Notes: generated by a model from the letters alone, not told the origin. 64,000 bases of DNA from Vicinamibacterales bacterium (GCA_035937795.1 DASZHO010000046.1:936-64935); one strand, 5' to 3'; numbered from the stretch's first letter, positions 35,086 to 63,313 are shown. A program made the numbers and translations.

Positions 35086-35126
35086 CGGTGGACCATACGC
35101 CCAGGGCAACCGTCGAGTCAACCGCG

Positions 35127-35196: not shown

Positions 35197-35235
35197 GCTT
35201 GCAGTGCGCGTGGCCGCCGGTGAAGAATACGCACC

Positions 35236-36456
35236 GTGGGAAAGCGCTATCTCGGTGCCCTCGTGCTCGGTGTGGCCTGCTTTGCGCTGGGAGCGGCGTT
35301 CCAGAGGTTCTACGACACACGCAGAGCCGCCGCCGCGGAGGCGGCGCGGACGATCAAGCCGCCGCCGGAGCCCGGCAACAACAACGGCGCGGTGAACCCG
35401 GCACCCATCCAGTTCGATCACGAGCCCCTGTGGGCCTACGGCTTCGACACGCGTCCGGCGCCCGGCGAAAAGGCGCAGCCTCAGGCTCCGCCGAACAGAA
35501 ACCTGCGCCCGAACGAAGATCCCGTCGAGCAAACGCGGGCCCGGCATGTGGACGGGAGCAGAGCCGCCTATTCGCTGGTGGACGTGCGCGACGGACAAAA
35601 TGTGATCGACTGGTTTCCGGGCGATCACCCCGCCATGCCGGACGTGGTGGCGCACGGCCCGGCCCGCCTGGGTGCGGCCACGCGCGGGTGCGCCTCGTGC
35701 CACCTTCCCAACGGGAAAGGCCGCCCCGAAAATGCGCAGCCGGGCGGGCTGCCCCTCGCCTATTTCATGCGCCAGATCCAGGACTTTCGCAACGGGCTGC
35801 GGCACACCGCCGATCCGAGGAAGCCGAACACGAACACGATGATCGATCTCGCGAAAGCGATGACAGACGAAGAGGTCAAGGCCGCGGCGGAATACTTCGC
35901 GGCCATCAGGTACACGCCGTGGATCCGCGTGGCGGAAACGGAACTGGTTCCGAAAACGAAGATTTCGGGAAACTTGTTTCTTCCGATCGAGCAGGCCCCT
36001 TGGTCAAAGACCGAACCGATCGCCGGGCGGATCATCGAGATGCCCGAGAACGTGGAGCAGGCCGAGACGCTGCGCAATCCGCACTCGGGGTTTGTCGCCT
36101 ACGTGCCGGTGGGCGCGATCAAGAAGGGCCAGGACCTCGTCACGACCGGAGGCATGAGGGTGGTCGGGAACGAGATCGTGCAGGGAAAGACGACGCCGTG
36201 CGTGACGTGCCACGGGTTGGATTTGATGGGTGTGGCCGACGTGCCGCCCATCGCAGGCCGTTCCCCGAGCTACATCGTGCGGCAGGTGTGGGACATCCAG
36301 CAAGGCACACGAAACGGCGCCGCGGTGCAGTTGATGAAGATGGCGGTCGCGAAGCTCAACGAAGACGACCTCGTCAATATTGCGGCGTACGTGTCGTCCC
36401 GCGTGCCTCCACGAGCGCATGTTCCCGAAAAGCGGAGCGCCGGGCTCCTGCGCTAG
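35236..36456 (+). CDS. Membrane-anchored di-haem c-type cytochrome
   Basis: GTG start, N-terminal TM helix, and two CxxCH motifs (CASCHLP, CVTCHGL). Confidence 0.8.
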   Translation: MGKRYLGALVLGVACFALGAAFQRFYDTRRAAAAEAARTIKPPPEPGNNNGAVNPAPIQFDHEPLWAYGFDTRPAPGEKAQPQAPPNRNLRPNEDPVEQTRARHVDGSRAAYSLVDVRDGQNVIDWFPGDHPAMPDVVAHGPARLGAATRGCASCHLPNGKGRPENAQPGGLPLAYFMRQIQDFRNGLRHTADPRKPNTNTMIDLAKAMTDEEVKAAAEYFAAIRYTPWIRVAETELVPKTKISGNLFLPIEQAPWSKTEPIAGRIIEMPENVEQAETLRNPHSGFVAYVPVGAIKKGQDLVTTGGMRVVGNEIVQGKTTPCVTCHGLDLMGVADVPPIAGRSPSYIVRQVWDIQQGTRNGAAVQLMKMAVAKLNEDDLVNIAAYVSSRVPPRAHVPEKRSAGLLR

Positions 36457-37099: not shown

Positions 37100-38707
37100 C
37101 TACTGGGGTTTCGAGAAGTCGACGTCGAGCTGCACCGGCTTGGAAGTGGCGGTTATCGAGAAACGGCGCTCGTCGCCGGCCGCATTCTTCACGATGACGA
37201 TCCGGGTCCCGAGATTGACCTTCCGATTCTGGATCGGCGTCTCGCCGACCGGCGCGCCGTCGATCGACACCTCAGCCGGCGGCGTTGAGGTGATGCTTAT
37301 CGTCGTCTGCGGCACGAGGTTCAGCGTGCCGGTTTCCCCCGGCTTGATGTCCACCGTCCTGACTTCGTCGTAGCCGAACGAGCGATTCTGAAAGCGCAGC
37401 TTGTGCGGTCCGGCAGAAATCGTCGTCCGGCCGCGGTCATCGAGCCGAACCGGCTGATTGCCCTCGCTGATGTCGATGTCAAACGGCGAGAACACCGCCA
37501 GCGTGCCGGAGAAAATCGATTCGCTCAATTCGGCGGTCTTTCCGTCCGCAATCGTCACGTTCCGGCGCACCGAGCCCTCCTGGTTCTCGATCGCGACGTT
37601 GTGCGGACCGGCTGACAGCCCTTCAACTGTCAGCGGCGTCTTGCCGCGCAAGACGCCGTCCACGAGCACGCGCGCGCCGGCGGGGTCCGATTCAACCTGC
37701 AGGCTACCTGTCGCCTTCGTCGTCCAGTCCACACGTTCGACAAGATGCTCGCGCGCGCCGACAACCAGCTCTTTCGTGCGTGTCATGTCGCCGCTCCGGA
37801 ACTCGATGACATGCCGGCCTCGAGCAACTTTCGCCGTGAGCGGCGTGGTGCCCACGAGCGCGCCATCGATGAAGACCTGGGAACCCGGAGGGCCGGTCTC
37901 GAGCGCCACCTCGCCTGAGATGAGATCTGCCTCCAGTTTCGGCCAGTAATTCAGACCGGCCGCGACAATCGCTATCAGAACGGCCAGGGCAAGGACGCGC
38001 GGCAGCCACCGGACGATCGGGTCGCGCCACTCGCGTGCGGCGGCCGTCGCGTTTGACATCAGCGAAGGAGCGGGCTCGGCCTCTTCCGCCGGTTCCTCGA
38101 TGGGCTCAGGCTCGAATGCCGGCTCCGGCCGCCGGGGGGGTGCTGCTGGAGCAGCCGCTACAGGACCCGGGGCAGCCGCCGCGCGAACTGGAGCGGGCGG
38201 CAAGGGAACTGGAGCGGCCGCGCGAACCGGAGCGGCCGGCACGCGAACTGGAGCCCGCTCGGCCGCTGTGACAGCGGGCTGGCGCACCCTCTCACTCACC
38301 GCCGCGGCGGCCATCCCACCCGTGCGCCGGCCGCGCACCCAGTCTGCAACCGCGCGACCCGCAGCGATGAGCTGCGTGCGGCCGGGCCCCGAGGCGAGGC
38401 ACTGGCGGATCAGTTCCGCGAAGCCTCCCGAAGCGTCTGCCGCGAGGTTGCCATCCGACCTGGGTGCCCGAAACGTCAACGTGCGCACGCCGCCGGGCAC
38501 GGCGCGCAGGTGCGCAATCAGCTCGGCTTGCCCGTCCTCGGCCTCAGGCGGCAGAAGCACGAGATCGGGCAGACGCCGATTGACTGCCGTCATGGCGACG
38601 GCGTACGAATCGGCCCCCATGAGCTCGTGGCCGGGCAGCTCGCGTGCCAGGCGCTCGAGCGCTGCCGTCTGGCGTCCCTGAGGATTAATCGCAAGGATCA
38701 GCGCCAT
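37100..38707 (-). CDS. PEGA-domain protein with N-terminal receiver-like (pseudo-receiver) domain and one TM helix
   Basis: Start at ATG 38707 (MALILAINPQG...PDLVLLPPE). Ala/Pro-rich linker and TM helix LALAVLIAIVAAGL. At least 3 PEGA units (VFIDGALVGTTPL, VLVDGVLRGKTPL, VSIDGAPVGETPI). Confidence 0.75.
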   Translation of the reverse strand: MALILAINPQGRQTAALERLARELPGHELMGADSYAVAMTAVNRRLPDLVLLPPEAEDGQAELIAHLRAVPGGVRTLTFRAPRSDGNLAADASGGFAELIRQCLASGPGRTQLIAAGRAVADWVRGRRTGGMAAAAVSERVRQPAVTAAERAPVRVPAAPVRAAAPVPLPPAPVRAAAAPGPVAAAPAAPPRRPEPAFEPEPIEEPAEEAEPAPSLMSNATAAAREWRDPIVRWLPRVLALAVLIAIVAAGLNYWPKLEADLISGEVALETGPPGSQVFIDGALVGTTPLTAKVARGRHVIEFRSGDMTRTKELVVGAREHLVERVDWTTKATGSLQVESDPAGARVLVDGVLRGKTPLTVEGLSAGPHNVAIENQEGSVRRNVTIADGKTAELSESIFSGTLAVFSPFDIDISEGNQPVRLDDRGRTTISAGPHKLRFQNRSFGYDEVRTVDIKPGETGTLNLVPQTTISITSTPPAEVSIDGAPVGETPIQNRKVNLGTRIVIVKNAAGDERRFSITATSKPVQLDVDFSKPQ

Positions 38708-38750
38708 AGGATTTGTTCCTGAAGAGCGTATAACATTGACGCTGAACAGG

Positions 38751-40652
38751 ATGACGACTCGTAGCCGCTCGGTTTCCGATCTGCCCCAGGATCTCGTGGC
38801 GCTGCAAGGCCTGCTCGACACGCGGCTTGCCGCCCTCGAGCAGGCATTAGCCGACCCGGCTCAGCACGGATCCCTCGAACAAATCATCCTCGATCTGGCC
38901 CGCGTTGCCACCAGAGAAGCGGAAGCCGCCGCCCGCCAAGCCTATCTTGAGGCGCAGCGCGAGGGCCAGGGCGCTCTTGCCGCCGCCGGCGCCAAAGCGC
39001 GGGCTGCGCTCGAGAGCGAGCAGGAAGCGGTCGCCCTGATGCGCGCCGAGCTGGACGAGGTCCAGGCGAGGGCTCAGCTGGAACGGGCCAACGCCGCCTC
39101 TGTGCGGTCCGACTTCACCCAGGCCCACACGGCGCTTCAGCAGGAACGGACTGCTGCCGCCGCGATGCGCGCGGAGCTCGAGCAGGCGCAGGCCGCTGTT
39201 CAGCAGGAACGGGCAGCGGCCGCCTCAATACGCGCGGAGCTCGATCAGGCACAGGCCGCCGTTCAGCAGGAACGGGCGGCTGCCGCGACCCGCGAGCGCG
39301 ATCTTGCGGCGTTGCGGCAGACGCTCGAGCAGGAACAGGCAGCGCGTGCAAGCCTCGAGCGCAAAGCCGTCGACGCCAACGCCGCGGTAGAGACCGAACG
39401 CACCGCCGCCGCCACGCTGCAGCAGCGATTGGTGCAGCTGGAGTCCGCGCACCGGTTGGAGCACGACGCGGGCGCGGCGCGCGAACGGGACCTGGCCGCG
39501 GTGCAGCAGGCGCTCGAGCAGGAGCTCAAGCAGGAGCAAACGGCGAACGTGAACGTTCGCCGCGAGCTCGAAGAGGCTCGGACCGCCGCCGTGTCCGTTC
39601 AGCAAGCGCTCGACCAGGCGCACGCCGCGTTGAAATCCGCACGGGCGGGCGCGGGCCGCGACCAAGACCTCGCCGCGGCACAGGACGCGCTCGAGCGGGA
39701 CCTGAAGCGAGAGCAGGCGGCGCACGCGAACGTTCGCCGCGAGCTCGAAGAGGCTCGGACCGCCGCCGTGTCCGTTCAGCAAGCGCTCGACCAGGCGCAC
39801 GCCGCGTTGAAATCCGAACGGGCGAGCGCGGGCCGCGATCAGGACCTTGCTGCGGCAAAGGACGCGCTCGAGAAGGAGCTGAAGCGCGAGCAGGCGGCGC
39901 ACGCAAAGCTTCGCGAGCAGTTCGAAGCCGCGAGACACGCGCCGGAAGGCGATCGCGCGACGAGACAGCCGGATCTCGAGCGGGCGGTCAAGGACGCGCA
40001 GGCGCGCGCCGAAGCGGCGACGCTTGGGCATCGGAAGGTGCTGGCTGAACTGGAGGCGTTGAAGCAGTCGGCCTTTGCGAACGAGGCTGACGCCAAGGTT
40101 CGGTACGAAAAACTCCGCGATGCCGCCGATCAGCAGATTCGGTCCTTGCAGTTGAAAGTGAGCGACGCCGATCAGCGTGCGGCGGCCGCGGAAGGCGATT
40201 TGGATCTGCTGCGGCGCGAGGCGAAGGCGCGTGATGCGAGTGCCGGGGGCGCGCCGTTGTCCGCGCCGTCCCGCGCACCGGGCGCGGCGGTCCCGGCCGC
40301 GGCGGCACCGGCTGCAGGCCAGTCCACCGCGGACGGCCCGGTGCGAGCGGCCAAGCGCACCGCCATGACGGGCGAGGTCGACATCCAGATCGATGGCAAC
40401 GCCTCGAAGCTGATCGATCTATCGACGACAGGTGCGCAAATTCTTTCACCGGGAGCGCTGAAGCCGAACAGACTGATCACGCTGATCCTGCCACTCGCCG
40501 AAGGACGCGTGTCGTGCAAGGGGAAAATTATGTGGTCGCGGCTCGAGCCGGGTCGAAAGGGCGGCCTTTGGTACCGGGCGGGCATCTCGTTTACCAGCGC
40601 AGACGAGGCCGCCATCGAACAGTTCCTGAACCACCAATCCCGGGGAACGTAA
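38751..40652 (+). CDS. Long coiled-coil repeat protein with C-terminal PilZ domain
   Basis: ATG 38751 (the track uses TTG 38736). About 480 aa of Ala/Glu/Gln/Arg heptad-like sequence. The C-terminal PilZ has RAAKR (RxxxR, 40344-40358) and DLSTTG (DxSxxG, 40416-40433). Confidence 0.8.
   Translation: MTTRSRSVSDLPQDLVALQGLLDTRLAALEQALADPAQHGSLEQIILDLARVATREAEAAARQAYLEAQREGQGALAAAGAKARAALESEQEAVALMRAELDEVQARAQLERANAASVRSDFTQAHTALQQERTAAAAMRAELEQAQAAVQQERAAAASIRAELDQAQAAVQQERAAAATRERDLAALRQTLEQEQAARASLERKAVDANAAVETERTAAATLQQRLVQLESAHRLEHDAGAARERDLAAVQQALEQELKQEQTANVNVRRELEEARTAAVSVQQALDQAHAALKSARAGAGRDQDLAAAQDALERDLKREQAAHANVRRELEEARTAAVSVQQALDQAHAALKSERASAGRDQDLAAAKDALEKELKREQAAHAKLREQFEAARHAPEGDRATRQPDLERAVKDAQARAEAATLGHRKVLAELEALKQSAFANEADAKVRYEKLRDAADQQIRSLQLKVSDADQRAAAAEGDLDLLRREAKARDASAGGAPLSAPSRAPGAAVPAAAAPAAGQSTADGPVRAAKRTAMTGEVDIQIDGNASKLIDLSTTGAQILSPGALKPNRLITLILPLAEGRVSCKGKIMWSRLEPGRKGGLWYRAGISFTSADEAAIEQFLNHQSRGT
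39480..39935 (+). repeat. In-frame 177-bp (59-aa) tandem repeat, 2 full copies plus 1 partial, with an 89-bp identical core
   Basis: Copies start at 39480, 39657 and 39834. 39551-39639 is identical to 39728-39816 by direct comparison. A further 63-bp (21-aa) repeat pair lies at about 39165-39290. Confidence 0.85.
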
Positions 40653-45458: not shown

Positions 45459-46535
45459 CTACTTCATCAGGCTGAACTTCTGGATTCGCCGGCCCGTGTC
45501 GGTTTCGGCAATATACAGGTTGCCTTTCGAATCGACCGCCACCGCGTGCCCGTGGGTGAAGTTGCCGAGCATGTGCCCGGGCCGGCCGAAGCTCGAGAGA
45601 ATCGTCCCGCTGGTGCGATCGAGGACGTGAAGCTGCTCGTTGCGGCCGTTCATCACGTACATGAACTTTTGGCCGGGGTCGCGCGAAAAGGCGATCCACC
45701 AGACCGTGCCGCGGGGATCGGGGAGCGCCGGCGTTCCCGTTCTCACCCAGATGTTCCGCTTGAAATTGCCCATCTTGTCGAAGACCTGAACGCGATCGCC
45801 CTGGCGATCGCACACGTAAAGCAGGCCGTCGTTGCCCATGGCAATGCAGTGCACAATCTGGGCAAACGCGCCGCCCACCCCGGCTGCGGTTTCTTCCTTC
45901 GTCGCCTGGTGGCCCCATTGCCGGAGAAACGTGCCCTGCTTGTCGAACACCACAACCCGGCGATTGCCGTACCCGTCGGCCACGAAGACCTCGCCGTTGG
46001 CCGGATCGACGACGACGGCCGCCGGATTGAAGAACTGGGTCTGGCTGGCGTTGAGATTCTTGCCTCTGCTGGTGCCGTCCGAGCTGTCGAAGACGCCGCG
46101 CTTGCCGATTTGCAGCAGCATCTTGCCGTCGTGGGTCCACTTCTGGATGATGCCGTCGCCGTTGCCGGTGAGCCAGATATTGTTGTCGTGATCGACGAAG
46201 CACCCGTGGATGGTCCCCGGCACGGTGGTCGAGTCGCCCCACGAATCGACAAGCTTGCCCGCCAGGTCGAATATCAGGACAGACGGCGCCTGCTTTGACG
46301 TCTCCGCTTCTTCGTCCGTGATGTCGCGCCGATTGGTCACCACGAGGTGATCCTGCGCGTCGACGCACACGCTGCCGGTGCGCCCGATGATCCATCCTTC
46401 CGGCAGCGGCTTGGGCCAGTACGGGTCGATCTCGAACCGTGGCGCGGTGCTCTGCGCCTGCAGGGACATCGGCGCCGGCTGAATACCCGCCCACGCGCAT
46501 ACGAACAAGACAGACGCAACGACAGCGGTCCTCAT
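45459..46535 (-). CDS. NHL-repeat six-bladed beta-propeller protein (amidating-lyase-like)
   Basis: Signal peptide present. Repeated units such as GDRVQVFDKMGNF, NRRVVVFDKQGTF and NLYIAETDTGRRIQKF. Confidence 0.7.
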   Translation of the reverse strand: MRTAVVASVLFVCAWAGIQPAPMSLQAQSTAPRFEIDPYWPKPLPEGWIIGRTGSVCVDAQDHLVVTNRRDITDEEAETSKQAPSVLIFDLAGKLVDSWGDSTTVPGTIHGCFVDHDNNIWLTGNGDGIIQKWTHDGKMLLQIGKRGVFDSSDGTSRGKNLNASQTQFFNPAAVVVDPANGEVFVADGYGNRRVVVFDKQGTFLRQWGHQATKEETAAGVGGAFAQIVHCIAMGNDGLLYVCDRQGDRVQVFDKMGNFKRNIWVRTGTPALPDPRGTVWWIAFSRDPGQKFMYVMNGRNEQLHVLDRTSGTILSSFGRPGHMLGNFTHGHAVAVDSKGNLYIAETDTGRRIQKFSLMK

Positions 46536-46605: not shown

Positions 46606-46649
46606 TTTTATGCGAGCACTAATCGCCTTTTATGCGAGCACTAATCGCC
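46606..46649. repeat. Perfect 22-bp tandem duplication TTTTATGCGAGCACTAATCGCC x2
   Basis: Read directly. The second copy contains the stop codon and last two codons of the gene at 46641..46898. Confidence 0.95.
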
Positions 46650-52754: not shown

Positions 52755-52784
52755 CGTGCGCGCATGATAGTACGAAAACTTCTT

Positions 52785-52875
52785 ACTTTCTACCGTTACT
52801 TCTACCTTTTCCACTTTTAACTTTCCAGTTTCCACTTTCCACTTTTAACTTTCCCCTTTTAACTTTCCACTTTCG
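52785..52875 (+). repeat. Heptanucleotide tandem array A (ACTTTCC-type, about 13 units)
   Basis: Nine units in perfect phase from 52813 to 52875 (ACTTTTA ACTTTCC AGTTTCC ACTTTCC ACTTTTA ACTTTCC CCTTTTA ACTTTCC ACTTTCG). Upstream units have 6-bp variants and a 2-bp insertion. Confidence 0.9.
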
Positions 52876-53381
52876 TAGTACCGCTTGTACATTCCGCGGC
52901 GAAACAGCCATCCCCCCAGCGGTCCCAGCCATTTCAGCACGTGGTACATGTATCCGAGGTCCATGATCTCGATGAGATTGCCGTCGAAGTCCTTTGCGAA
53001 AAAAAATGTGTGACCACGCGGCGATCGTTCCGGCCTGCCGAGGCAGTCGACGCCTTTGCTGACGAGGTAGTCGTACCACTTCTGGGTGTTTTTGACATTG
53101 AAGCTGATGTGCGTCAGGCCGACGCGGTTCCACGGAGGGGCGGCCGCCGGGCGGTCCGGCTTGAAGTCAAAGATTTCGAGCACGCCGCCGCCCGGCACGC
53201 GAATCCAGCCAATCTTGCAGCTCGGGTGCTCGCTGTCGACGCCGAAGAACGTGCGGACCCTGTCGGGCGGCGTGTCGGCAACGCCCACCAACGAACACCC
53301 GAAGACGTCAGAGTAGAACCGCACCGCCTTGTTGAAGTCCGACACCGTGATGCCGGCATGGCTAAGCGATCGAGCTCTCAT
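52845..53381 (-). CDS. VOC-family (glyoxalase/bleomycin-resistance fold) protein
   Basis: Start at the internal ATG 53381, forming an ATGA overlap with the M16 stop. LSHAGITVSDFNKAVRFYSDVFG...THISFNV...FFFAKDFDGNLIEI. The last ~9 codons (ESGKLKGES) lie in array A. Confidence 0.8.
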   Translation of the reverse strand: MRARSLSHAGITVSDFNKAVRFYSDVFGCSLVGVADTPPDRVRTFFGVDSEHPSCKIGWIRVPGGGVLEIFDFKPDRPAAAPPWNRVGLTHISFNVKNTQKWYDYLVSKGVDCLGRPERSPRGHTFFFAKDFDGNLIEIMDLGYMYHVLKWLGPLGGWLFRRGMYKRYYESGKLKGES

Positions 53382-56224
53382 TGGTATGCTTTCGCGGCCT
53401 TGAAGTCGCCTCCTTTCACGATGGACACGGCGGCCGTGTTGATGTGACGGCGGAAGGCGGCGTTGATCTGCTCCAGGCTCAGCGCTGCCAGCTTCCCGTC
53501 CAGTTGCTCGTCCCACGCCAGGGTGCGGCCGTACAGCTCACGTGAAGAGATCAGGTTGAGCAGGCCGGCGTCGCTCGATCGCGCTCCGACCCGGCTGTCC
53601 TGGATCGCCTTCTTCGCCGCCGCGAGCTCGGAGGCGGTGAACCCGTCTCGAAGCGTACTGGTCAGCTCGTCCATGAAGCTCGCTTCAACTTTAGGAATGT
53701 TGGCGGGGTTGGCGATGGCCGAAGCCGAAAACACCGCCGCGTCCCCTTCGACTGGCGCGGCAAAACTCGACGACACCCCGTAGCTCAGACCTTCGCGATT
53801 CCGCACCCGGTCAGGCAGGCGCGAGCTCAGCCCGCCCCCGCCGAACATGTAGTTCGCCATGACCATGGCGGGATAATCCGGGTCGCTGTCCCGCATACGA
53901 AGACGCAAGCCGGCGGAAAATTGCGCGTTCTCCTTGTCGGGCGTTTCAATCTTCGTATTGATCGGCCCCGCGTCCTGGTAGGTGTTGACGATGCGCGCGT
54001 ACGGGCTCGGGCTCTTCCAGGACGCGAGCAGGTCGGCGGCGGCGTTCTTGACGGCTGTCTGGTCGAACTTGCCGACGACGATGAGATCGCCCTGCGAAGC
54101 GCCGTAGAACTGCTCATGGAATTTCCTCACGTCGTCCAATGTCAGGTTGGTGAGATCCTCGATTTCTTCGTCGATCGTGCGGACGTGGCGGACGTCGCTT
54201 CGGGGGAAGGGGCTGAGATGGGCTTGAAGAGCCTGCGCCACAAGGATCCCGGGCTCAGTCCGGCCGCGTTCGATCTGCGCGATCTGCTGCTGGCGAATTT
54301 GCTCGAAGTCTGCGGCGGCGAATGCCGGTTCGCGGAGAATTTCCACCGCGAGCCGCAAAGCCGGAACAAGGTTGTCCGACGTGGTTGAAATCGATGCCGT
54401 CACGCTGCCGAGCGCCGCGTCCGCCGATCCCCCGCGCCCGCCGCCTCCACCGACGGTGATGGTCGCATTCAGTTTCTGCATCTCGTCCTGAATCTGCTGC
54501 CGCGATCGATTCTTCGTTCCTCGCATCAGCAGCGCGTCGGCCATCTGGGCTGCTGCGTTCCGGCCGGCGAGCGACCGCTCATCGCCAAAGCGAAGGGTCA
54601 GAGACGCTTGCGCGCGGCTTCCTCTCGTGCCCTTGGGCAGCAGCGCCAGACGGAATCCGCCGGCACGCGCGCCAGGCCCCGGAAGCCCGCCAAGAGTCGT
54701 CCGCTGAATTCTCTTTTCGAGGCTGCCCGGCGACGGATCCAGCGCCTCGCCGGCGTCGAGATGGATTTCAGGGGTGTAGGACTTCAAGAGCGTTTCGATA
54801 CCGGGCGCGTCGGGTACCGTTGTGCGGTCGGGCGCCGGTTCGGGAATGAACATGCCCACGGTCCGGTTCGAATCCTTGAAATACTGCCGCACGACACGCG
54901 TGACGTCGTCCGGAGTCACGCGTTTGATCTCTTCGTAGTTCGTGAACAGGAGCCGCCAGTCGCCTGCAGCGATCACCTCGTTCAACTGCATCGCGAGTTG
55001 CTGCGAGTTGGCCATCGACCGGTCCATGCCCTGGATGATCCTGGTACGCGCTCGATCGATCTCCTCCATTGTGGGCGCCTCGTGCGCGAGGCCGGCGATC
55101 GTGTCGATGATGACTTTCTTCACCTCGTCGAGCGACTGGTCGTTGCTGAGCGTTGCGGAGACGAGGACGACCCCGGGATCGTGGAGCTCCTCCATCGACA
55201 CCGCGACCGACAGCGCCTTCTTGCTGTCGACGAGCGCCTTGTCGAGGCGGCCGGTCCCGCCTCTTCGGGCCAGAATGCCGGCCGTGACTTCGAGCGCGGC
55301 CGCGTCCGGATGCGCCATCGCTGGTGCGTGGTACGCAATGATGAGGTTCTTGCCCCTGCCGACGCGGCGAAGCTCAACCGTGCGCTCGCCGTCCTGCGGC
55401 GGTTCGGTCGTGTAGGGTTCGTCCAGCGTCCGGGCCGGACGCGGAATGGCGCCCAGCGTGCGCGCCACCGCGGCAAGCGTCGCAGCTGAATCGATCTGCC
55501 CCGCGATCGTCACGACGGCGTTATCCGGCTGGTAGTACTTGTGGTAGAACGCGGCGAGACGGTCGATCGGCACGCGCTCTATGTCGGCGCGCGAGCCAAT
55601 CGTCGACTTACCGTAGTTGTGCCAGAGGTAGGCGGTGGAGAGCACGCGTTCTTCCAGGACGCCGGCGACGCTGTTTTCACCACGCTCGAACTCGTTGCGA
55701 ACCACGGTCATCTCTGTGTCGAGCAACGCTTTCTCGATGCGCATGTTCACCATGCGCTCGGCTTCGAGGTCCAGCGCCCACTGCAGGTTGTCCTCCGACG
55801 CGTTCACGGTCTCGAAATAGTTCGTGCGGTCGTAATACGTCGTGCCGTTCCAGCGGGCGCCGTGGTCCTGCAGTTCCTTCTTGATGTTGCGGCCGTGCGT
55901 GCTCGCAATGAAGTTCATGTGTTCGAGCAGATGCGCCATGCCCGTCTCGCCGTAGCCTTCGTGGCGCGAGCCGACCAGATAGGTGACGTTGATCGTGATC
56001 GTGCTGCTGCCGGAGTCTGGAAGGAGCAGGACCCTCAGACCGTTCGAATAGGTGTATTGGGTGATTCCCGCCAGACTGCCGCCCTTTTGAACCCCCTGAG
56101 GAAGGGTCTGAGCGGCGGCGATCCAGCCGCTGAAGACCGCGGCCGCCGACAGTGTCAAAAGGCCGTAGCGGAATCGGGTCGGGCGCGGCAGGCTGCGGCG
56201 CGCGCGGGTGGTAGAGGTAGTCAC
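53378..56224 (-). CDS. M16-family (pitrilysin/insulinase) zinc peptidase, fused double-module form
   Basis: 948-aa ORF with a signal sequence. Inverted zinc motif HLLEH in GMAHLLEHMNF. A second M16-like half follows. Confidence 0.85.
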   Translation of the reverse strand: MTTSTTRARRSLPRPTRFRYGLLTLSAAAVFSGWIAAAQTLPQGVQKGGSLAGITQYTYSNGLRVLLLPDSGSSTITINVTYLVGSRHEGYGETGMAHLLEHMNFIASTHGRNIKKELQDHGARWNGTTYYDRTNYFETVNASEDNLQWALDLEAERMVNMRIEKALLDTEMTVVRNEFERGENSVAGVLEERVLSTAYLWHNYGKSTIGSRADIERVPIDRLAAFYHKYYQPDNAVVTIAGQIDSAATLAAVARTLGAIPRPARTLDEPYTTEPPQDGERTVELRRVGRGKNLIIAYHAPAMAHPDAAALEVTAGILARRGGTGRLDKALVDSKKALSVAVSMEELHDPGVVLVSATLSNDQSLDEVKKVIIDTIAGLAHEAPTMEEIDRARTRIIQGMDRSMANSQQLAMQLNEVIAAGDWRLLFTNYEEIKRVTPDDVTRVVRQYFKDSNRTVGMFIPEPAPDRTTVPDAPGIETLLKSYTPEIHLDAGEALDPSPGSLEKRIQRTTLGGLPGPGARAGGFRLALLPKGTRGSRAQASLTLRFGDERSLAGRNAAAQMADALLMRGTKNRSRQQIQDEMQKLNATITVGGGGGRGGSADAALGSVTASISTTSDNLVPALRLAVEILREPAFAAADFEQIRQQQIAQIERGRTEPGILVAQALQAHLSPFPRSDVRHVRTIDEEIEDLTNLTLDDVRKFHEQFYGASQGDLIVVGKFDQTAVKNAAADLLASWKSPSPYARIVNTYQDAGPINTKIETPDKENAQFSAGLRLRMRDSDPDYPAMVMANYMFGGGGLSSRLPDRVRNREGLSYGVSSSFAAPVEGDAAVFSASAIANPANIPKVEASFMDELTSTLRDGFTASELAAAKKAIQDSRVGARSSDAGLLNLISSRELYGRTLAWDEQLDGKLAALSLEQINAAFRRHINTAAVSIVKGGDFKAAKAYQ

Positions 56225-56403
56225 GGGATGGTTCTCCTTGCTTGATCGATTGCTTCAGCGGTTACCAGTCTACTTTGATAAGTCTGCCTGGAGCTGATCA
56301 CATCATCACGCTCGGCTGGCGCGGAAAGGGCGACTGCAGCGTGCGACAGCAAGGCCCAACCAAGTATCTTCAAGATTAAGGCTTGCCTGAGCTGTCGTGC
56401 TCC

Positions 56404-56835
56404 TTATGGGAGCAATTCAAGTGCGCGTGTGAGCCCCGGGCCGACGCGAATTGCGCTGAAGTCACGTCGATCAGTCGTCAGAACTCGATAGACCTGTCGT
56501 CGTTCAACGACAGCGGCCACTGTCCCATCGACCAGTCCCAAACTGAGATTATTGAATTTCGCGTCGAGTTCAAGCGCACGAGCAATGTCAGAAGAAAGGG
56601 GCACCTCATAGTCGTAGCTGGTTCCCGGGTCGAAAATCTCAGCGACTAGTTTGCGCATAGCGGCCCGGTCCTCTCGAAGAAAGTAGTCGACCTCCGCGAG
56701 AACGAGCCCAGGTACGATGACGAGGCTCGCAGAGGTCAAGACTGCTTCGTAGTCTGGAAAGCTCGGTCTATTGTCTGCCGCGCGGGCGAGCGCTCGGAGG
56801 AGCCCTCCGGTGTCAGCGACGATGGGAGGACTCAA
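56404..56835 (-). CDS. vapC: PIN-domain toxin (VapC)
   Basis: IVADTGGLLRAL...LVLAEVDYFL...DGTVAAVVERRQVYRVLTTDRRDF. 4-nt overlap with the upstream antitoxin gene. Confidence 0.75.
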   Translation of the reverse strand: MSPPIVADTGGLLRALARAADNRPSFPDYEAVLTSASLVIVPGLVLAEVDYFLREDRAAMRKLVAEIFDPGTSYDYEVPLSSDIARALELDAKFNNLSLGLVDGTVAAVVERRQVYRVLTTDRRDFSAIRVGPGLTRALELLP

Positions 56836-57059
56836 CCCTTAAGATCCCGGAACAGCTCGGACTCATCTCCCAGCTTGGTGTCTGTGGATTCAAAGAGCCG
56901 CGTCGAGGGGGGTCGCCGTCCCGTGTAGTACCGCGAGGCTACGATGCGCAGACCCTTCCGAACGAGCTCAGATGCGGAGTGCCCCGCCGCCCTGGCTCGC
57001 TTCAAGGCCCGCACATCCGCTTGATCTAGGCGAATCGTGGTCGAAATCAGTCGTGCCAT
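56832..57059 (-). CDS. vapB: Ribbon-helix-helix (CopG-like) antitoxin (VapB)
   Basis: Start at the internal ATG 57059 (MARLISTTIRLDQADVRALKRARAAGHSASELVRKGL). Confidence 0.7.
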   Translation of the reverse strand: MARLISTTIRLDQADVRALKRARAAGHSASELVRKGLRIVASRYYTGRRPPSTRLFESTDTKLGDESELFRDLKG

Positions 57060-57138
57060 ACACTCACCATACAACGACTCGATGCGCAAAGGCAACCAGG
57101 GCCGAACGAGACATGCCCAGATCGGTGACTCTCGACGT

Positions 57139-58638
57139 TCAGTCACGCAATTCAGTTTCCTTGATATGGTCGGCCACTCGCAGCGCTTGCGCGACGATCG
57201 TCAACGCGGGGTTCACCGCCGCGGACGAAGGGAAAAACGACGCATCGACCACAAACAGGTTCTCGACGTCGTGCGAGCGGCAGAAGGGGTCCAGCACCGA
57301 CTCGTACGGGCTGGTTCCGAAACAGAGCGTCCCGCACTGGTGCGTGGTGTTCCGATTCTTGTGCGAGTACGACATCACGACCCAGTAGCCGAGACGCCGG
57401 AGGATTTGTCTGGTCTCTTTCACGAGGCGTTGATGCGCCTTCATGTTGTTCGGATGATAGGTCAAACGGATGCGTCCGTCGGGCTCAACGGTGACCCGGT
57501 TGTTCACGCTGGGAAGGTCCTCGGTCATCACCAGCCAGTCGACGCCCCTGGAGACCCAGGACTCGTAGGCCCACAGCGGAATCCAGGGCGCGACCGTCTG
57601 CGCCATCACGGCGTGCGTTCGACCTTGCGACTGAATGTGCCCCAACGGGGAGTCTGTGCCCGGACCTCGAAAGTAGAAGTCGTTGATGGCCACCGTCTTC
57701 TGGAACACGGTTTCGTTCCGGCGAAATGGATGAAATCCCTCCATCATGGTCGCCAGATGCGCCATGTATCGGCGTCCGACGAGACCCGATGAATTCGCCA
57801 GCCCGTTCGGGTGGGCGCTCGTGGCCGAACGGAGCAGCAGCGCGGCCGAATTCACCGCGCCGCAAGCCACGACAAACAGCGACGCGTCCACCTCGACGGT
57901 CTCGCCATTGCGCTCCACTTCAACGGCGGCGACTTTCCTTCCAGATGGATCGGTGCGCAGCCGTCTGGCGTAGGCGTTGGTCCACAGCGTGACGTTCGGC
58001 CGCTCGAGGGCGGGGCGGACGCAGCACACGTCGGCTTCGCTCTTGGCGTGGAGCTTACAGGCAAACGAGTTGCAGGTATTGCAAAGGATGCATCCGTCGC
58101 GCAAGCCGAGCGGCAGGGGCGACGGATGAAGGCCTTGACGTCGCAGCCCATCGACGACATCCGAGATGCCCGCGGCGTGAGGGACCGGTTCGTGCGGAAA
58201 CGAACCCCGCGACGCTTCCGTTGGATCGGCGCCCGATTCCCCATGCACATGGTAGAGGCGCTCGGCCTGTTCGTAGAACGGCGCGAGCGTGTCGTAGTCG
58301 ATCGGCCAGGCCGGCGAGACTCCGCCCATGTGTTGAACTTCCTGAAAATCTTCGCGGCGCATCCGATAGAGCACGCTGCCCCAGAACTTGGTGTTCCCGC
58401 CCACGTTGTAATGCGCGTACGGCAGAAACTCGTGGCCGCGATCGTCCAGCCATCGCTCCTTGGTGCGATAGCGGAGCTCCTTCCAGACCGCCTCGGGATT
58501 CCAGTTTTCTTCTTCTTGCGCCACGAAATCGCCGCGCTCGAGGATGAGAATTCTGGCCGGACTGTCAGCCAGCGCGTAGGCCGCCGTGCCGCCGCCCGCG
58601 CCGGTCCCAATAATGACGATGTCGTAGCGGTCGTTCAA
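57139..58638 (-). CDS. GMC-family FAD-dependent oxidoreductase
   Basis: YDIVIIGTGAGGGTAAYALA (GxGxxG) and a C-terminal GMC pattern HQCGTLCFG...LFVVDASFFPSSAAVNP. TTG start overlaps the upstream stop (TTGA). Confidence 0.85.
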   Translation of the reverse strand: MNDRYDIVIIGTGAGGGTAAYALADSPARILILERGDFVAQEEENWNPEAVWKELRYRTKERWLDDRGHEFLPYAHYNVGGNTKFWGSVLYRMRREDFQEVQHMGGVSPAWPIDYDTLAPFYEQAERLYHVHGESGADPTEASRGSFPHEPVPHAAGISDVVDGLRRQGLHPSPLPLGLRDGCILCNTCNSFACKLHAKSEADVCCVRPALERPNVTLWTNAYARRLRTDPSGRKVAAVEVERNGETVEVDASLFVVACGAVNSAALLLRSATSAHPNGLANSSGLVGRRYMAHLATMMEGFHPFRRNETVFQKTVAINDFYFRGPGTDSPLGHIQSQGRTHAVMAQTVAPWIPLWAYESWVSRGVDWLVMTEDLPSVNNRVTVEPDGRIRLTYHPNNMKAHQRLVKETRQILRRLGYWVVMSYSHKNRNTTHQCGTLCFGTSPYESVLDPFCRSHDVENLFVVDASFFPSSAAVNPALTIVAQALRVADHIKETELRD

Positions 58639-59600
58639 AGCTGTTCCATGAGGCGCTGGTCTTCGACCGCCCGCTCGAGGCTCATCTCCGGGGTGCGGCC
58701 GGCCCGGATCGAGGCGAGAAAGTCGCCATACATCGCCCGGTAGCCGCGGATGTCCCGAAATCCGGGAAAGATGATGCGCGGAATGCCGTTTCCTCTCGCG
58801 AGCACGAACCCTCCGTTGGACTCGAACGTGATCACGCCCTTGCGGCCGGACAACGTCGACAATCGCAGCCCGTGAAGCAGCGATGGAATCTCTCTGGAGT
58901 AAAACAACGTGCCCACGGCGTCGTTGTCGTATCGAAAGGCCACCATCATGCTCTTGGCGCGCTTGTCAGTCCCGTTCGGCGAGACTGACGGGCGATACCC
59001 CTGAATCGTCGCGATCCGGGGGCCCAGGCTGCCCGCGAGATGCAGCCAGTGAACGCCTTCTTCGAAAAACGCGTCTCCGCCGGCCAGCGCCTCGTCGTTG
59101 CGCCAGTCATGAGCCGTCTTGAATTTTTTCGCAATCGTCGTGAACTGCGCAAACACCATTTCGCCGATGGTGCCTTCGGCAAGAAGCTTTCTCAGCGTAA
59201 CCGCCAGCGGCTTGTAGTGATCGTTTTCGCCCACGAGCACGACCCGATCGGCCCTGTCCCTGGCTTGGATGGCCGTTCGATAGTCTTCCACGCTCGGGAA
59301 GGCGGGTTTTTCCACGAGCACGTGCTTGCCCGCCCCCAACGCCTGAAGCGCGAGGTCCAGATGGAATCGCGGCGGCACCGCGATCACCACGGCGTCGACC
59401 CTTGGGTCGCCGATTGCCGCGGCATACTCGGAGTAGCTCTCCGCTCCGTTGTATCGCCGGCGGTAGTCGTCGGCCTTTGCGCGGTCGCGGCTTGCGTAGC
59501 TGCAGACGACGTCGCCGTTGAGGGACCGCAGATGGCGGCTGTGCACGGCGGTGATATAGCCGCATCCGAGGAACGCCAGGCGCAGTGGCTGTGGAGTCAA
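58635..59600 (-). CDS. Gfo/Idh/MocA-family NAD(P)-dependent oxidoreductase
   Basis: LRLAFLGCGYITAVHSRHL...HVLVEKP. Confidence 0.85.
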   Translation of the reverse strand: MTPQPLRLAFLGCGYITAVHSRHLRSLNGDVVCSYASRDRAKADDYRRRYNGAESYSEYAAAIGDPRVDAVVIAVPPRFHLDLALQALGAGKHVLVEKPAFPSVEDYRTAIQARDRADRVVLVGENDHYKPLAVTLRKLLAEGTIGEMVFAQFTTIAKKFKTAHDWRNDEALAGGDAFFEEGVHWLHLAGSLGPRIATIQGYRPSVSPNGTDKRAKSMMVAFRYDNDAVGTLFYSREIPSLLHGLRLSTLSGRKGVITFESNGGFVLARGNGIPRIIFPGFRDIRGYRAMYGDFLASIRAGRTPEMSLERAVEDQRLMEQL

Positions 59601-59865
59601 CGAAGATAGATTCTACCTTCGCCACCGATTTGTCTAACCAGCGCCACACTTCTGCAACAGGCTGCAACAACAATACGAAGAGAGCCATGGCCTGGTGGAT
59701 CGTCGTGCTGTTTGTGAATGCCGGCGCGTATTCGTGGAACTTCGTGGTGAATCGGTTGAGTGGCCGCCGTGTGCTCGAGCTGCTCGGTTTCCCCCGCCGA
59801 GACTCACCGTCAGCTGTCTCTGAACGGCCTGGCCGCAACGACGACGCTTCGAGCCTTTAACGTCT

Positions 59866-59956
59866 ACTTTCCACTTTCCACTTTTTACTTTCCACTTTCC
59901 ACTTTCCACTTTCCACCTTCCACTTTTTACTTTCTACTTTTTACCTTTTACTTTCC
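59866..59956 (+). repeat. Heptanucleotide tandem array B: 13 perfectly phased units, 91 bp, no G on the + strand
   Basis: ACTTTCC ACTTTCC ACTTTTT ACTTTCC x4 ACCTTCC ACTTTTT ACTTTCT ACTTTTT ACCTTTT ACTTTCC. It ends at the base before the efpL-like stop codon (59957-59959). Confidence 0.95.
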
Positions 59957-60532
59957 TCAAGCTCTGCCCGCAAACTCCCGTGTCTCGGTGTGCACTTTCA
60001 CTTTCTCGCCTTCCTTGATGAAGAGCGGCACCTGAATCTGCAGCCCGGTCTCCAGCGTGGCGAGCTTGGTCACGCTCCCGCTGGCCGTGTTGCCGCGGGC
60101 GCCCGGTTCGGTCGAGGCGACTTTCAACTCTACGTGCGGCGGAAATTGCACGCCGATCGGGTTGCCGTTGAACTTCTGCACCTGGACGACGAGGTTGTCG
60201 ACCAGCAGCAGGCGATCCTCGCCCAGCATGTCGTCCTGGAGCGTCAGCGTGTCGAACGAATCCTGATCCATGAAGTGAGAGCCGCCGCTGTCGCTGTAGA
60301 GGTACGCGGCGTCGACCGAGACGAGATCCGGCTCCTCGAATTTTTCGGCGGCTTTGAACGTCTTGTCGAACACCGCGCGGGTCAGCAGGTTCCGCATCTT
60401 GATGCGCACCAGAGTCTGCCCGCCCCGGGCCGTCGGCCGCGACACTTCCACGTCGAGGCAGTGATACGGCGCGCCTTCGTACTCGAAATACATCTTCCGC
60501 TTGATATCGAGCGCTTCAATCAGCGAGGCCAT
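59957..60532 (-). CDS. efpL: Elongation factor P-like protein (EfpL/YeiP type)
   Basis: 191 aa. The loop [18 protein letters not shown] and the C-terminus [15 protein letters not shown] resemble E. coli YeiP (SPTARGAATLYKMRF ... RIHIEERRYMGRAD, from memory) rather than the canonical EF-P KPGKGQA loop. Confidence 0.8.
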
Positions 60533-60551
60533 AGGGCAGCCATTGTAGTAA

Positions 60552-60633
60552 GTAAAAACTGAAAAGTTGAAAGTTAAAAGTGGAAAGTTGAAAGTTAAAA
60601 GTTAACTTAAAAGTTGAAAGTTAAAAGTGGAAC
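60552..60633 (+). repeat. Heptanucleotide tandem array C (about 12 units), inverted relative to arrays A, B and D
   Basis: GTAAAAA CTGAAAA GTTGAAA GTTAAAA GTGGAAA GTTGAAA GTTAAAA GTTAACT TAAAA GTTGAAA GTTAAAA GTGGAAC. It begins 19 nt upstream of the efpL-like ATG and spans the GNAT stop (60621-60623). Confidence 0.9.
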
Positions 60634-61109
60634 TGCAAGTCCAGCTCCAGATAGACAGCGTTTGCAATGGGACTGACGTAGTACGGCGGGATGTTCCGGA
60701 AGCCGACCGAACGGTACAGGGCAATCGCGTGATCCATTATTCCGGAGACGGTATCGAGCCGCATCGCGGAATAGCCGGCGGAACGTGCTTCGGCGATGAG
60801 GTGGATAACCAGCTTCAAACCGAGGGCGCGTCCGCGGAATTCCGGCCTGATGTAGAGCCTCTTCATTTCACAGATTCCTTCCTCGAGCTTCTTCAACGCA
60901 ATGCACCCAGCAGGCCTGCCATCGACCTCACACAAAATCAGTCGTCCGTCAGGTGGTGCGTACTCGCCGGGCAGCCCTCGCAGCTCCTGGTCGAACTGTT
61001 GAAAGCAGAGGCTGAAGTTCAGCGAGCCGGCGTATTCCAGAAACAGCAGACGGATATCCTCGAGCCGGGGCCCGGAATCGACGGCGACGAATGTCACCTG
61101 CGCGGACAT
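60621..61109 (-). CDS. GNAT-family N-acetyltransferase
   Basis: Motif A region LYIRPEFRGRALGLKLVIHLIAEA. The last 3 codons and the stop lie in array C. Confidence 0.8.
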   Translation of the reverse strand: MSAQVTFVAVDSGPRLEDIRLLFLEYAGSLNFSLCFQQFDQELRGLPGEYAPPDGRLILCEVDGRPAGCIALKKLEEGICEMKRLYIRPEFRGRALGLKLVIHLIAEARSAGYSAMRLDTVSGIMDHAIALYRSVGFRNIPPYYVSPIANAVYLELDLQFHF

Positions 61110-61119
61110 GCCCGGATGG

Positions 61120-62016
61120 TTACCGCAGGAGGTCCATGTCCTCAGCGGTCAGCCTGAGGCCCGCGGCGGCAACATTCTCTTCAAGATGGCGTACCTTGGA
61201 TGTGCCGGGAATCGGCAGCATCACGGGGGTGCGCGCCAGGAGCCAGGCGAGCGCGATTTGCGAGGGGGTCGCACCGAGGCGTTTGGCGATCTGCGCGACG
61301 ATCGCGGTCCGGCGATCGCTTCGTCCGAGTAGTGAACGCGCGAAATGCCCCAGGCCGGTTTTCGCGACGTTTCCCGCCTGCAGCGGAGACCACGGTATGA
61401 AACCGATCCGCTGCCGATCGCAATAGTCGACGACCGCCTCCCACGAACGGTCGGCGACGTTGTAGCGATTCTGCACCGAGACAACGGGAAAGACCTTCTT
61501 TGCACGCTCGATCTGTTCCACCCCTACCTCGGAAAGCCCGATGTGCCGAATCTTTCCTTCGCGCTGCGCGCGCTGAAGAAAGCCAAACTGTTCTTCCTCC
61601 GGCACGTCGGGATCGATTCGATGAAGCTGAAAGAAGTCGATGCGCTCGAGCCGCAGCCGGCGAAGGCTCCCTTCGAGCTCCTCGCGCAACCGCTCCGGAC
61701 GGCAGTTGACTTCCCAGCGATCCGGCCCCGGCCGATCTTGGCCTGCCTTGGTGGCAATCACCAGCCCGCTTGGATAGGGAAACAGTGCCTCGGCAATCAG
61801 CTCTTCGCTGACATGAGGACCGTACGACTCGGCCGTATCAATCAGGTTCACGCCCAGATCAACCGCCCGGCGAAGGGTTGCGATCGCCTCCGCACGATCC
61901 TGGGGCGGACCCCACACGCCCGGCCCGGCGATGCGCATTGCACCGAATCCGAGCCGGTGGACGGAAAGGTCACCGCCGAGGAGAAAAGAGCCGCTGAATG
62001 AGGCGTTTGGTTCCAT
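61120..62016 (-). CDS. Aldo/keto reductase
   Basis: GFGAMRI...[11 protein letters not shown]...HRIDPDVP...GLSEV...QNRYN...PWSPL. Confidence 0.85.
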
Positions 62017-62127
62017 GGTCGCTGTGAATCAGGCCCGCATCGCGAAGTCTAGCAACGACGCTGTTTGAGCTCAAAGTTCCCGTCGATTCCCGCGGCGCTT
62101 CCGGCCTCGCGCTAGAATCATCTCAGC

Positions 62128-63270
62128 TTGACCAACCGCGAATCCTACCCGGCCGCCCGCATCGTCGCGCCAAAAGTCCACGCACATTTCTTCCGGCATC
62201 TCGATGCGGCGCGGCGGCGGGGGGTCACGTCTGTGGCGGCGCTGCCCGATGCGAGTGTAATCGAGCGGCTGATCAACGCCACGTTCTGGGCGAGCCTTCG
62301 CCGCGAGGAAGGGTACGTCCCCAAGATCTCCATTGCGTATCTGCCTCCGGAGCACGACGCCGGGCGGCTGTTGTTCGAGCATTCTCTGCCGCTCGAGCCT
62401 GGCGCGCTGGCGAAGGTGGCCCCCATCGTGGAGCGGGCGGGGATTCACCTCGGCGTCTGGCACCAGGGCGACGAGCTGCGCGTGTGGGGGACCACGCACA
62501 CGATTCCGACCTTCTGCTTCGTCGTGGAGGTGGTCGACCCAGGGCTGCTCGTCATCAAACACCATCGCGGGGAGAAGTCGGGGAAGTACGTCAACGTGGC
62601 CGTCCTCGAAGGCGATCAAATCAAAGTCGTCGACGAACACGCATCGAGCTTGCCCGATTGCCCGGAGCTGGTCACGTCGCTGCTCGGGTTTGATTCGCCC
62701 GCGTCGTGGATCGATTCCGTCAATGTGCTCGTGCAGCTGGCCGTCTCGATGCGCGCGCACGGCCGCGGCGGGTCGCTCCTCGTGGTGCCGGAGGGCACCG
62801 AGAGCTGGCGCCAGTCGATGGTGGACCCGATCGTGTACTCGATCGCTCCGCCGTTTCGCGAGCTTGCGATGCTGATGCGCGAAAGCGGCGACGGCCGCCA
62901 GGCGCAAGTGTGGCAGGAAGCGCTGGGCGAAACGGTGGATGCGATTGCCGGGCTGACGGCGGTCGATGGCGCGACGGTGATTACCGATGCCTACGAGCTG
63001 CTCGCGTTCGGCGCGAAGATCGCCCGCAAGCGCGGCTCCACGCCGGTGGAACAGGTGACCATTACCGAGCCGATCGAAGGGGGCGTGCCGGTGACGATGA
63101 CCTCGGCGGAGCTTGGCGGGACGCGCCATCTCTCCGCTGCGCAGTTCGTGCACGATCAGCGCGACTCGATTGCCCTGGTGGCCTCGCAGGATCGCCGCTT
63201 CACCGTGTTTGCGTGGTCGCCGTGCGAGGAACGCGTTCACGCGCACCGCGTCGAAGCCCTGCTGCTTTAA
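62128..63270 (+). CDS. Diadenylate-cyclase (DAC/DisA_N)-like domain protein with ~200-aa uncharacterised N-terminal domain
   Basis: C-terminal half: GGSLLVVPE, AVDGATVIT (DGA at 62965-62973), GGTRHLSAAQF (RHL at 63124-63132, where canonical DACs have RHR), SIALVASQDRRFTVFA. TTG start is uncertain. The overlapping minus ORF 62071..63246 is rejected. Confidence 0.65.
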   Translation: MTNRESYPAARIVAPKVHAHFFRHLDAARRRGVTSVAALPDASVIERLINATFWASLRREEGYVPKISIAYLPPEHDAGRLLFEHSLPLEPGALAKVAPIVERAGIHLGVWHQGDELRVWGTTHTIPTFCFVVEVVDPGLLVIKHHRGEKSGKYVNVAVLEGDQIKVVDEHASSLPDCPELVTSLLGFDSPASWIDSVNVLVQLAVSMRAHGRGGSLLVVPEGTESWRQSMVDPIVYSIAPPFRELAMLMRESGDGRQAQVWQEALGETVDAIAGLTAVDGATVITDAYELLAFGAKIARKRGSTPVEQVTITEPIEGGVPVTMTSAELGGTRHLSAAQFVHDQRDSIALVASQDRRFTVFAWSPCEERVHAHRVEALLL

Positions 63271-63278
63271 CTAAGGTC

Positions 63279-63313
63279 ACTTTCCACTTTCCACTTTCTA
63301 CTTTCTACTTTCT
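63279..63313 (+). repeat. Heptanucleotide tandem array D (5 units)
   Basis: ACTTTCC ACTTTCC ACTTTCT ACTTTCT ACTTTCT. It fills most of the 34-nt gap between convergent stops at 63268-63270 (+) and 63305-63307 (-). Confidence 0.9.

Follow-up and report, generated by a model that had tools for sequence, protein, structure and literature searches.

Why should long tandem arrays of an AT-rich heptanucleotide lie pressed against the ends of genes in the GC-rich genome of an acidobacterium? The question is posed by a 64,000-nt stretch of DNA from Vicinamibacterales bacterium (GCA_035937795.1 DASZHO010000046.1:936-64935; the whole of this 64-kb stretch is referred to here as the window), in which there are four arrays built of units related to ACTTTCC. 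The host, a soil acidobacterium, is probably one of the Vicinamibacterales: the names of homologues place the window in Vicinamibacterales/Acidobacteriota, and its CarboxypepD_reg-TonB receptor agrees with this. We consider it probable that all four arrays belong to a single lineage-specific family of hypermutable heptanucleotide simple-sequence repeats (SSRs), of a known class, and that their effects on the neighbouring genes are incidental. The arrays, each with the strand that carries the pyrimidine-rich unit, are:

Array A, 52785-52875, + strand: pyrimidine unit NNACTTT, between a VOC gene and a histidine-kinase-like gene (ATG at 52754).
Array B, 59866-59956, + strand: 13 units in perfect phase (ACTTTCC, ACTTTTT, ACTTTCT and ACCTTCC), adjoining the stop codon of the EF-P gene at 59957-59959.
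Array C, 60550-60639 (repeat core 60552-60633), - strand: a 90-nt block between the 3' end of a GNAT gene and the efp start codon (60532).
Array D, 63279-63313, + strand: five units (ACTTTCC twice, ACTTTCT three times), between the convergent DACNV and DUF7910/glycosyl-hydrolase-like genes.

In order to delimit the arrays, Tandem Repeats Finder (TRF) was run over the whole window and followed by direct reading of the sequence. TRF found all four arrays that the original prediction, made by reading the sequence alone, had proposed (scores 56-135), and as claimed there they form a multi-locus family pressed against gene 3' ends. No comparable heptamer array is present at any other place in the 64 kb. 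For array A the TRF call covers 52808-52874 (period 7, 9.6 copies, 0% indels), preceded by a head at 52783-52806 that is degenerate and out of phase; the array itself is real, and the approximately 13 units first counted in it consist of only about 10 units in phase plus about three degenerate ones. Array B was called at 59865-59956 (12.9 copies, 0% indels), array C at 60563-60632 (10.3 copies, 6% indels) and array D with 5.0 copies and 96% matches. The unit variants read across the arrays are ACTTTCC, ACTTTTT, ACTTTTA, ACTTTCT, ACTTTCA and ACCTTCC, that is, a core of ACTTT at positions 1-5 which is 93-100% conserved, followed by variable positions 6 and 7 (50-70% C). Arrays A, B and D hold 27 of the 45 ACTTT pentamers on the + strand, and array B, correctly described as G-free over 91 nt, lies within a G-free run of 98 nt (59863-59960), the longest such run outside the arrays being 24 nt. 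The pyrimidine strands of the arrays contain 0-4% G, with 33-35% C in A, B and D and 22% C in C. Array C is inverted relative to A, B and D, and orientation within the window is consequently mixed: A and B have their purine strand on the sense RNA, which at array A (- strand mRNA) reads (GGAAAGU)n, and C has its pyrimidine strand there. An Rfam scan at gathering score and a tRNA scan of the whole window returned no match, and the window scans gave no mobile-element, transposase, reverse-transcriptase or RNA-family signal.

The reality and the behaviour of the arrays were assessed in closely related strains. An exact match to the EF-P protein identified four JGI metagenome contigs (L121-L124), to which L483 and L482 were added. 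L121 and L483, the latter from an independent JGI assembly, are 99.98% identical to the window and carry all four arrays at equal sizes; the remaining EF-P-matched contigs represent strains 97-99% identical to the window, and variant versions of the arrays occur in four metagenome assemblies other than that of L483, the strains with arrays being 92-99% identical. Array C is a precise 90-nt indel (60550-60639), present in L121 and in L124, where it has one substitution, and absent from L122 and L123; its junctions show only 3-4 nt of ACT(T) microhomology, the empty site holds no proto-repeat, and the insertion lacks the terminal inverted repeats of a mobile (MITE/REP-like) element. The remaining arrays differ in length. 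Array B numbers 13 units in the window and likewise in L121 and L483, but seven in L122, about nine diverged units in L123 and at least seven in L124, whose contig ends inside the array. Array D has five units in the window and about two in L122, whilst array A has only about six AAAGT-type units, versus 13, in the more distant strain L482, in which the VOC protein is 92% identical and gene order is kept. Thus the arrays change by whole units between near-identical strains, and at one site a complete array is present or absent. Since independent assemblies carry the arrays, and since copy numbers differ between them, the arrays are not assembly artefacts; the same sites are found in at least five independent assemblies, with unit counts that differ between strains.

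In a more distant contig with a VOC protein that is 89% identical, the spacer which takes the place of array A (L479:1141-1215) has a degenerate, A-rich 19-nt duplication (AAAAAATCAAGTAGGCGCT / AAAAAACAAAGTATGCGCT), and the VOC protein ends in a different 15-residue C-terminal extension. The duplication may be a decayed array.

How the arrays come to lie on stop codons can be read from the same alleles. The genes concerned are:

52845..53384, - strand: VOC/glyoxalase-family gene (Pfam), with its stop codon (52845) inside array A and its last eight codons and stop encoded by the array.
From ATG at 52754: histidine-kinase-like gene, downstream of array A.
59957..60532, - strand: efp, encoding elongation factor P (Pfam EFP_N/EFP/Elong-fact-P_C), with array C on its 5' side and array B on its 3' side.
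60621..61109, - strand: GNAT acetyltransferase gene (Pfam), with its stop codon (60621) inside the array C block.
Stop at 63268-70: DACNV-domain gene, adjoining array D.
Stop at 63305-07: DUF7910/glycosyl-hydrolase-like gene, with its stop codon inside array D.

Every array does touch a stop codon, as had been noted: those of VOC and GNAT lie inside arrays A and C, that of EF-P abuts array B and that of DUF7910 is inside array D. The description of the arrays as 3'-end elements is nonetheless incomplete, since A and C fill whole short spacers and end 20-31 nt upstream of the start codon of the next gene. All four arrays are intergenic and overlap only the last few, newly created codons of their neighbours. 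VOC homologues end in ...YYE(S/T)-stop at 170-175 aa, and the window protein adds eight array-encoded residues, SGKLKGES; in L482 the VOC stop falls within the first unit of the shorter array A. In the empty-site allele, GNAT is 167 aa long and overlaps the efp ATG by 17 nt. In the allele with array C it is 162 aa long and ends in ...LELDLQFHF-stop, with its last six codons and stop within the array C block and the final four codons in the repeat proper, and efp is shifted 89 nt away; array C thus costs GNAT its last 11 native codons, adds six new ones and abolishes the overlap with efp. Likewise the DUF7910 open reading frame (ORF) ends in ...FRLSGR-stop with two array D units (L122) and in ...FRMTGRK-stop with five. 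The arrays therefore replace native C-terminal codons and stops, and can separate overlapping, translationally coupled genes. Stop codons are present in most frames of the arrays. An array that grows in a very short spacer thus brings a stop of its own, and contact with stop codons follows. The empty-site and short-array alleles show that this contact is better explained by the filling of tiny spacers and the creation of new stops than by a placement of arrays on stop codons as such.

Two further observations concern these gene ends. Where GNAT meets array C (60628-60649, - strand) there is an 8-bp hairpin (UGGAGCUGGACUUGCAGUUCCA), after which comes the array, U-rich at its start; the hairpin was flagged as terminator-like by a simple scan and exists only in the array-bearing allele. 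The spacer between array B and the GFO/Idh gene is, at 270 nt, unusually long for the region, and holds a JGI-annotated 57-aa ORF (59673-59846, - strand; L121:3673-3846) that is antisense to efp and GFO, has no Pfam match and is probably spurious.

Are the efp flanks, or the ACTTT unit, special within the clade? A metagenome scan with EF-P gave 80 loci from relatives (384 kb in total, EF-P 75-88% identical), none of which contains an ACTTT-type array. TRF found 33 heptamer arrays of other units in these loci, some of the units recurring at two to four loci of a contig: AAGCCGS at four in L168, AACCTCC at two in L139, and also AACTCCC (L163) and ATCCCGG (L128). Both G and C are present in many of the units that relatives have at equivalent sites, and these units are often GC-rich. 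Their arrays occupy approximately 5-10% of intergenic spacers (about 0.09 per spacer), and the four arrays in the approximately 45 spacers of the window are the density expected from this. Arrays adjoin efp downstream at 6 of 74 loci and upstream at 4 of 74; this occupancy of 5-8% is the generic intergenic rate in the clade, and the efp flanks were accordingly rejected as an array hot spot. Comparison of these loci shows that within the clade the 7-nt period persists whilst the unit sequence turns over.

Three of the relatives carry inverted pairs of same-unit arrays directly downstream of efp on the + strand (L143:805-945, L181:715-815 and L191:2535-2660). These are predicted to fold into hairpins of -50 to -60 kcal/mol, of the form (AAAGGGC)n-loop-(GCCCTTT)n in L181, and look like terminator or stabiliser hairpins with arms made of heptamer repeats.

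Outside the clade the same unit is widespread. Among 185,579 species genomes scanned for (ACTTTCC)3 there are at least 120 matching loci, in more than 15 phyla, including Bacteroidota, Patescibacteria, Chloroflexota, Planctomycetota, Acidobacteriota, Verrucomicrobiota, Firmicutes, Cyanobacteria and Spirochaetota. Comparison of the window with 120 of these cross-phylum loci by blastn showed no homology, and the shared repeat is therefore not due to a shared mobile element. Among the 120 loci listed, a period of 7 is by far the commonest tandem period (403 of 1078 TRF rows); about 150 arrays there have more than 100 other, unrelated units. A control comparison, made on viral contigs only, gave 15 loci for (ACTTTCC)3, 11 and 18 for two permutations of the same composition, 107 for TAACTGA and three for an octamer control. 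The idea of a conserved cross-phylum (ACTTTCC)n element is accordingly rejected, both because many unrelated units share those loci and because the two same-composition controls are equally frequent in viral contigs. In about 200 kb-scale loci drawn from many phyla, roughly half of the gene 3' ends facing an array have a stop codon that lies within the array or no more than 10 nt away, and the median distance from an array to the downstream start is at least 39-76 nt; these positions derive from crude ORF calls by a masked, GC3-weighted (third-codon-position G+C) caller which reproduces the Pfam-supported genes of the window.

Heptamer arrays can be extremely dense. A Peribacteria metagenome-assembled genome (MAG; L024) and two Bacteroidota MAGs (L018 and L107) have 9-11 arrays in 7-8 kb, approximately one per spacer, with up to nine different units in a heptamer-rich stretch (nine in 8 kb in L024).

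We now return to the reading of the arrays as a slippage-borne SSR family. Length would change by slipped-strand mispairing or unequal recombination. New arrays would be seeded by the copying of existing array DNA to a new site, sometimes in inverted orientation, at short microhomologies, and the ACT/ACTT that flanks the array C insertion could be the microhomology used in such a seeding step. Arrays would then persist where insertion is tolerated, with nothing to preserve after a stop codon and 20-80 nt needed before a start, and any effects on expression, whether through unstructured G-free or purine-rich spacer RNA or through the hairpins of inverted pairs, would be a by-product and not some conserved role tied to the sequence.

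Several results weigh against this account in its simplest form. Slippage alone leaves unexplained both the presence of one unit at several loci and the appearance of a 90-nt array C at a site that had no proto-repeat. All four arrays crowd into 11.5 of the 64 kb (roughly p = 0.02). The ACTTT core is 94-98% conserved, with positions 6 and 7 free, in the window and in other phyla alike; units without G or without C are enriched 2-3.5 times among heptamer arrays; and the ACTTT family has its purine strand on the sense RNA in a ratio of 36:16 (per locus 29:10, p ~0.003). Core conservation, the enrichment of G- or C-less units and this orientation bias hint at some constraint or selection beyond pure neutrality. 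The sense RNA is not avoided by G-free strands in general: heptamer units other than ACTTT that lack G are unbiased in orientation (22:22).

What, then, could the arrays be for if they were functional? One proposal is that they are Rho-loading (rut) platforms, the G-free, C/U-rich strand recruiting Rho, such that A, B and D would end antisense or read-through transcription into the minus-strand genes and C would attenuate sense transcription into efp. The composition described above suits this in part, since the pyrimidine strands are nearly devoid of G, those of A, B and D are a third C over 35-98 nt, A and B have 19 YC dinucleotides each, and a tandem, non-self-complementary unit is intrinsically unstructured. 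Set beside the approximately 70-80 nt of C-rich, G-poor sequence of a rut site, A and B offer 33-35% C and 0-3% G over 91 nt, but C has only 22% C and D is only 35 nt long. The enrichment of G- or C-less units would also fit, and the 36:16 ratio, which places the pyrimidine strand of the ACTTT family antisense to co-directional genes across phyla, is compatible with the proposal and not a demonstration of it. However, array C points the other way, the remaining G-free units show no orientation bias, the equivalent sites of relatives hold G+C-rich units with both G and C, and near-identical strains can dispense with an array or with most of its length. (ACTTTCC)n occurs, moreover, in cyanobacteria, which are not generally known to have Rho. 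We regard Rho loading as rather unlikely.

The arrays might instead serve a protein that binds single-stranded nucleic acid with a 7-nt footprint, for instance a cold-shock-domain protein or ribosomal protein S1; one molecule would occupy each unit and modulate how the flanking genes are translated, how stable their RNA is, or anti-termination. The CTTT core resembles the reported T-rich heptamer preference of B. subtilis CspB, one protein per heptamer, and a cold-shock-type binder has been proposed for the TAACTGA repeats (PMC4679880). The period of exactly 7, with a 5-nt core and two variable positions in the window and in other phyla, would suit such a register, as would the placement of A and C 20-31 nt ahead of start codons for which no Shine-Dalgarno sequence is obvious. 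Yet the units of relatives are wholly different and often GC-rich, so that there is no one ligand that is conserved; the T-rich strand mostly falls outside the sense RNA; and the arrays are dispensable between strains. Cold-shock proteins, furthermore, have weak sequence specificity. Such a binder is unlikely to account for the arrays.

In a broader form of this proposal, heptamer arrays across phyla would not be debris of slippage but platforms read or made by a conserved machine working in a 7-nt register, for example cold-shock-domain or other OB-fold proteins, each bound to one unit. If that were true, the conserved 5-nt core, the enrichment of G- or C-less units and the ACTTT orientation bias would be its footprints, and the lineage-specific turnover of units would be a co-evolution of binder and sites. 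We give this idea little credence as an explanation at present.

The inverted pair of arrays C and B could also act as an RNA device, in which a duplex of approximately 80 bp across the efp ORF would set EF-P levels by occluding the efp translation start or by making an RNase III site. Both the minimum-free-energy and the centroid folds of the 801-nt transcript are predicted to pair C with B over approximately 80 nt (z = -5.05), the strong inverted-pair hairpins just downstream of efp in L143, L181 and L191 are a parallel, and inverted pairs are known for the GGGAATC repeats of Xanthomonas too (PMC4692102). Complementarity is, however, automatic for inverted copies of one repeat, and ribosomes at work on an ORF would unwind a duplex lying across it. 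The hairpins of the relatives lie wholly 3' of efp and do not enclose it, and L122 and L123, which lack array C, encode an EF-P identical to that of the window. A regulatory role of the C/B pair thus seems very unlikely.

The original prediction also suggested a CsrA-type sponge, in which (GGAAAGU)n in 3' untranslated regions would titrate a GGA-binding regulator by up to 13 evenly spaced GGA motifs. The purine strand, on the sense transcript at A and B, has eight GGA motifs in B and six in A, at multiples of 7 nt, and only two each in C and D; the count of 13 was thus too high, and the CC positions that give rise to GGA are the variable ones. None of the motifs lies in a hairpin loop and their spacing is tighter than that of known CsrA sites (an argument made in PMC4679880). 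The repeat has no hairpins of its own, no promoter and terminator pair delimits a small RNA, the window has no CsrB/Rsm-like Rfam match and no csrA within its 64 kb, and the relatives' arrays are without GGA. Array C is wholly absent from strains 97-98% identical, and the repeat is also found in Bacteroidota, Patescibacteria and Cyanobacteria, of which CsrA is not known to be typical. The sponge is thus highly improbable. Finally, short-read assemblers can mis-size tandem repeats, and exact unit counts could be off, but an origin of the arrays as an assembly artefact or chance low-complexity sequence can be practically dismissed given the recurrence of the same sites in independent assemblies from different samples, the clean flanks, the indels in multiples of the unit and the TRF scores.

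Taken alone the arrays are an ordinary, though tidy, case of their class, and their main value is as a record. The allele series of empty, 2-, 6- and 13-unit sites shows array birth, array growth and the rewriting of C-termini, stop codons and gene overlaps. The combination of a kept period with a changing sequence narrows the question of why heptamers are over-represented, and points toward the measuring of length or register and not of sequence. For annotation there is also a warning: where an ORF ends within such an array, that end is recent and unstable.

The window contains other repeats as well. Five copies of GGAAAGCCGATG(G/T), 13-17 nt apart, lie at 35126-35198, some 40 nt upstream of a di-haem cytochrome c gene (35236-36456); they are unrelated to the heptamers and could be an operator or iteron-like array. 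A perfect, AT-rich 22-nt tandem duplication (TTTTATGCGAGCACTAATCGCC twice) occupies 46606-46649, in the spacer after an NHL-repeat gene (45459-46535). Within an ORF for a PilZ-domain protein (38736-40652) there are in-frame tandem repeats at 39136-39904 (63 nt, 2.4 copies; 177 nt, 2.5 copies, 88% identical), in a region that is probably coiled-coil, and further 21/39-nt repeats are present at 38174-38255.

It remains to place the arrays among known heptamer repeats. The class has been known since 1990 and is still unexplained, and Mrazek and co-workers reportedly noted a class of intergenic heptamer repeats in 2007. We searched the literature for the tandem unit, spelled as DNA or as RNA, and obtained no description of it, only an unrelated Leptospira typing paper; a 2025 tree-of-life paper on short tandem repeats does not mention heptamers. 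Nor is the unit, ACTTTCC with its variants, that of the TAACTGA, GGGAATC or GGGGA(C/T)T family. Bacterial intergenic regions are over-rich in heptameric SSRs, for which a polymerase-slippage hypothesis has been proposed (PMC4692102). Copy-number change between strains is shared with the slippage-prone SSRs of phase variation in host-adapted pathogens, such as the heptanucleotide repeats of Haemophilus; those, however, belong to particular contingency genes, in whose promoters or reading frames they act as on/off switches, whereas the arrays of the window follow stop codons or separate housekeeping-type genes and on/off frame logic is not evident. The TAACTGA direct repeats of Beggiatoaceae, Cyanobacteria and Bacteroidetes, for which S1, Csp and CsrA have been discussed as candidate binders (MacGregor, 2015; PMC4679880), are likewise intergenic, patchy across phyla and have candidate binders in common with ours. 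They differ in being short (2-6 copies), mostly of one orientation and directly upstream of start codons, whilst the window arrays are longer, abut stop codons and are of mixed orientation.

Parallels are also offered by the GGGAATC/GGGANTN repeats of Xanthomonas and the GGGGA(C/T)T repeats of Nostoc (Rehm et al., 2015; PMC4692102). These share with the window family a 7-nt unit, a core with variable positions, strain length variation and occasional inverted pairs; they occupy many intergenic loci per genome with 2 to more than 20 units, and their function is not established. The unit in the window differs in being AT-rich and G-free, and thus without G-quadruplex potential, its host is a GC-rich acidobacterium, and the family is known from four loci in 64 kb. 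The STRR heptamers of heterocystous cyanobacteria (Calothrix/Nostoc; cited in PMC4692102, those of Calothrix only as three heptanucleotides) are also dispersed tandem heptanucleotide families in non-coding DNA, several per genome, and differ in taxon and unit sequence, the comparison of units leaving aside those of Calothrix. The original suggestion of a kinship in kind with STRR, with a unit not found described in the literature search, has held up. With head-to-tail 7-nt units at several loci in spacers, strain variation and a conserved core, the ACTTTCC arrays join the intergenic heptanucleotide simple-sequence repeats already known from bacteria as a further family, and do not amount to an element of a new kind.

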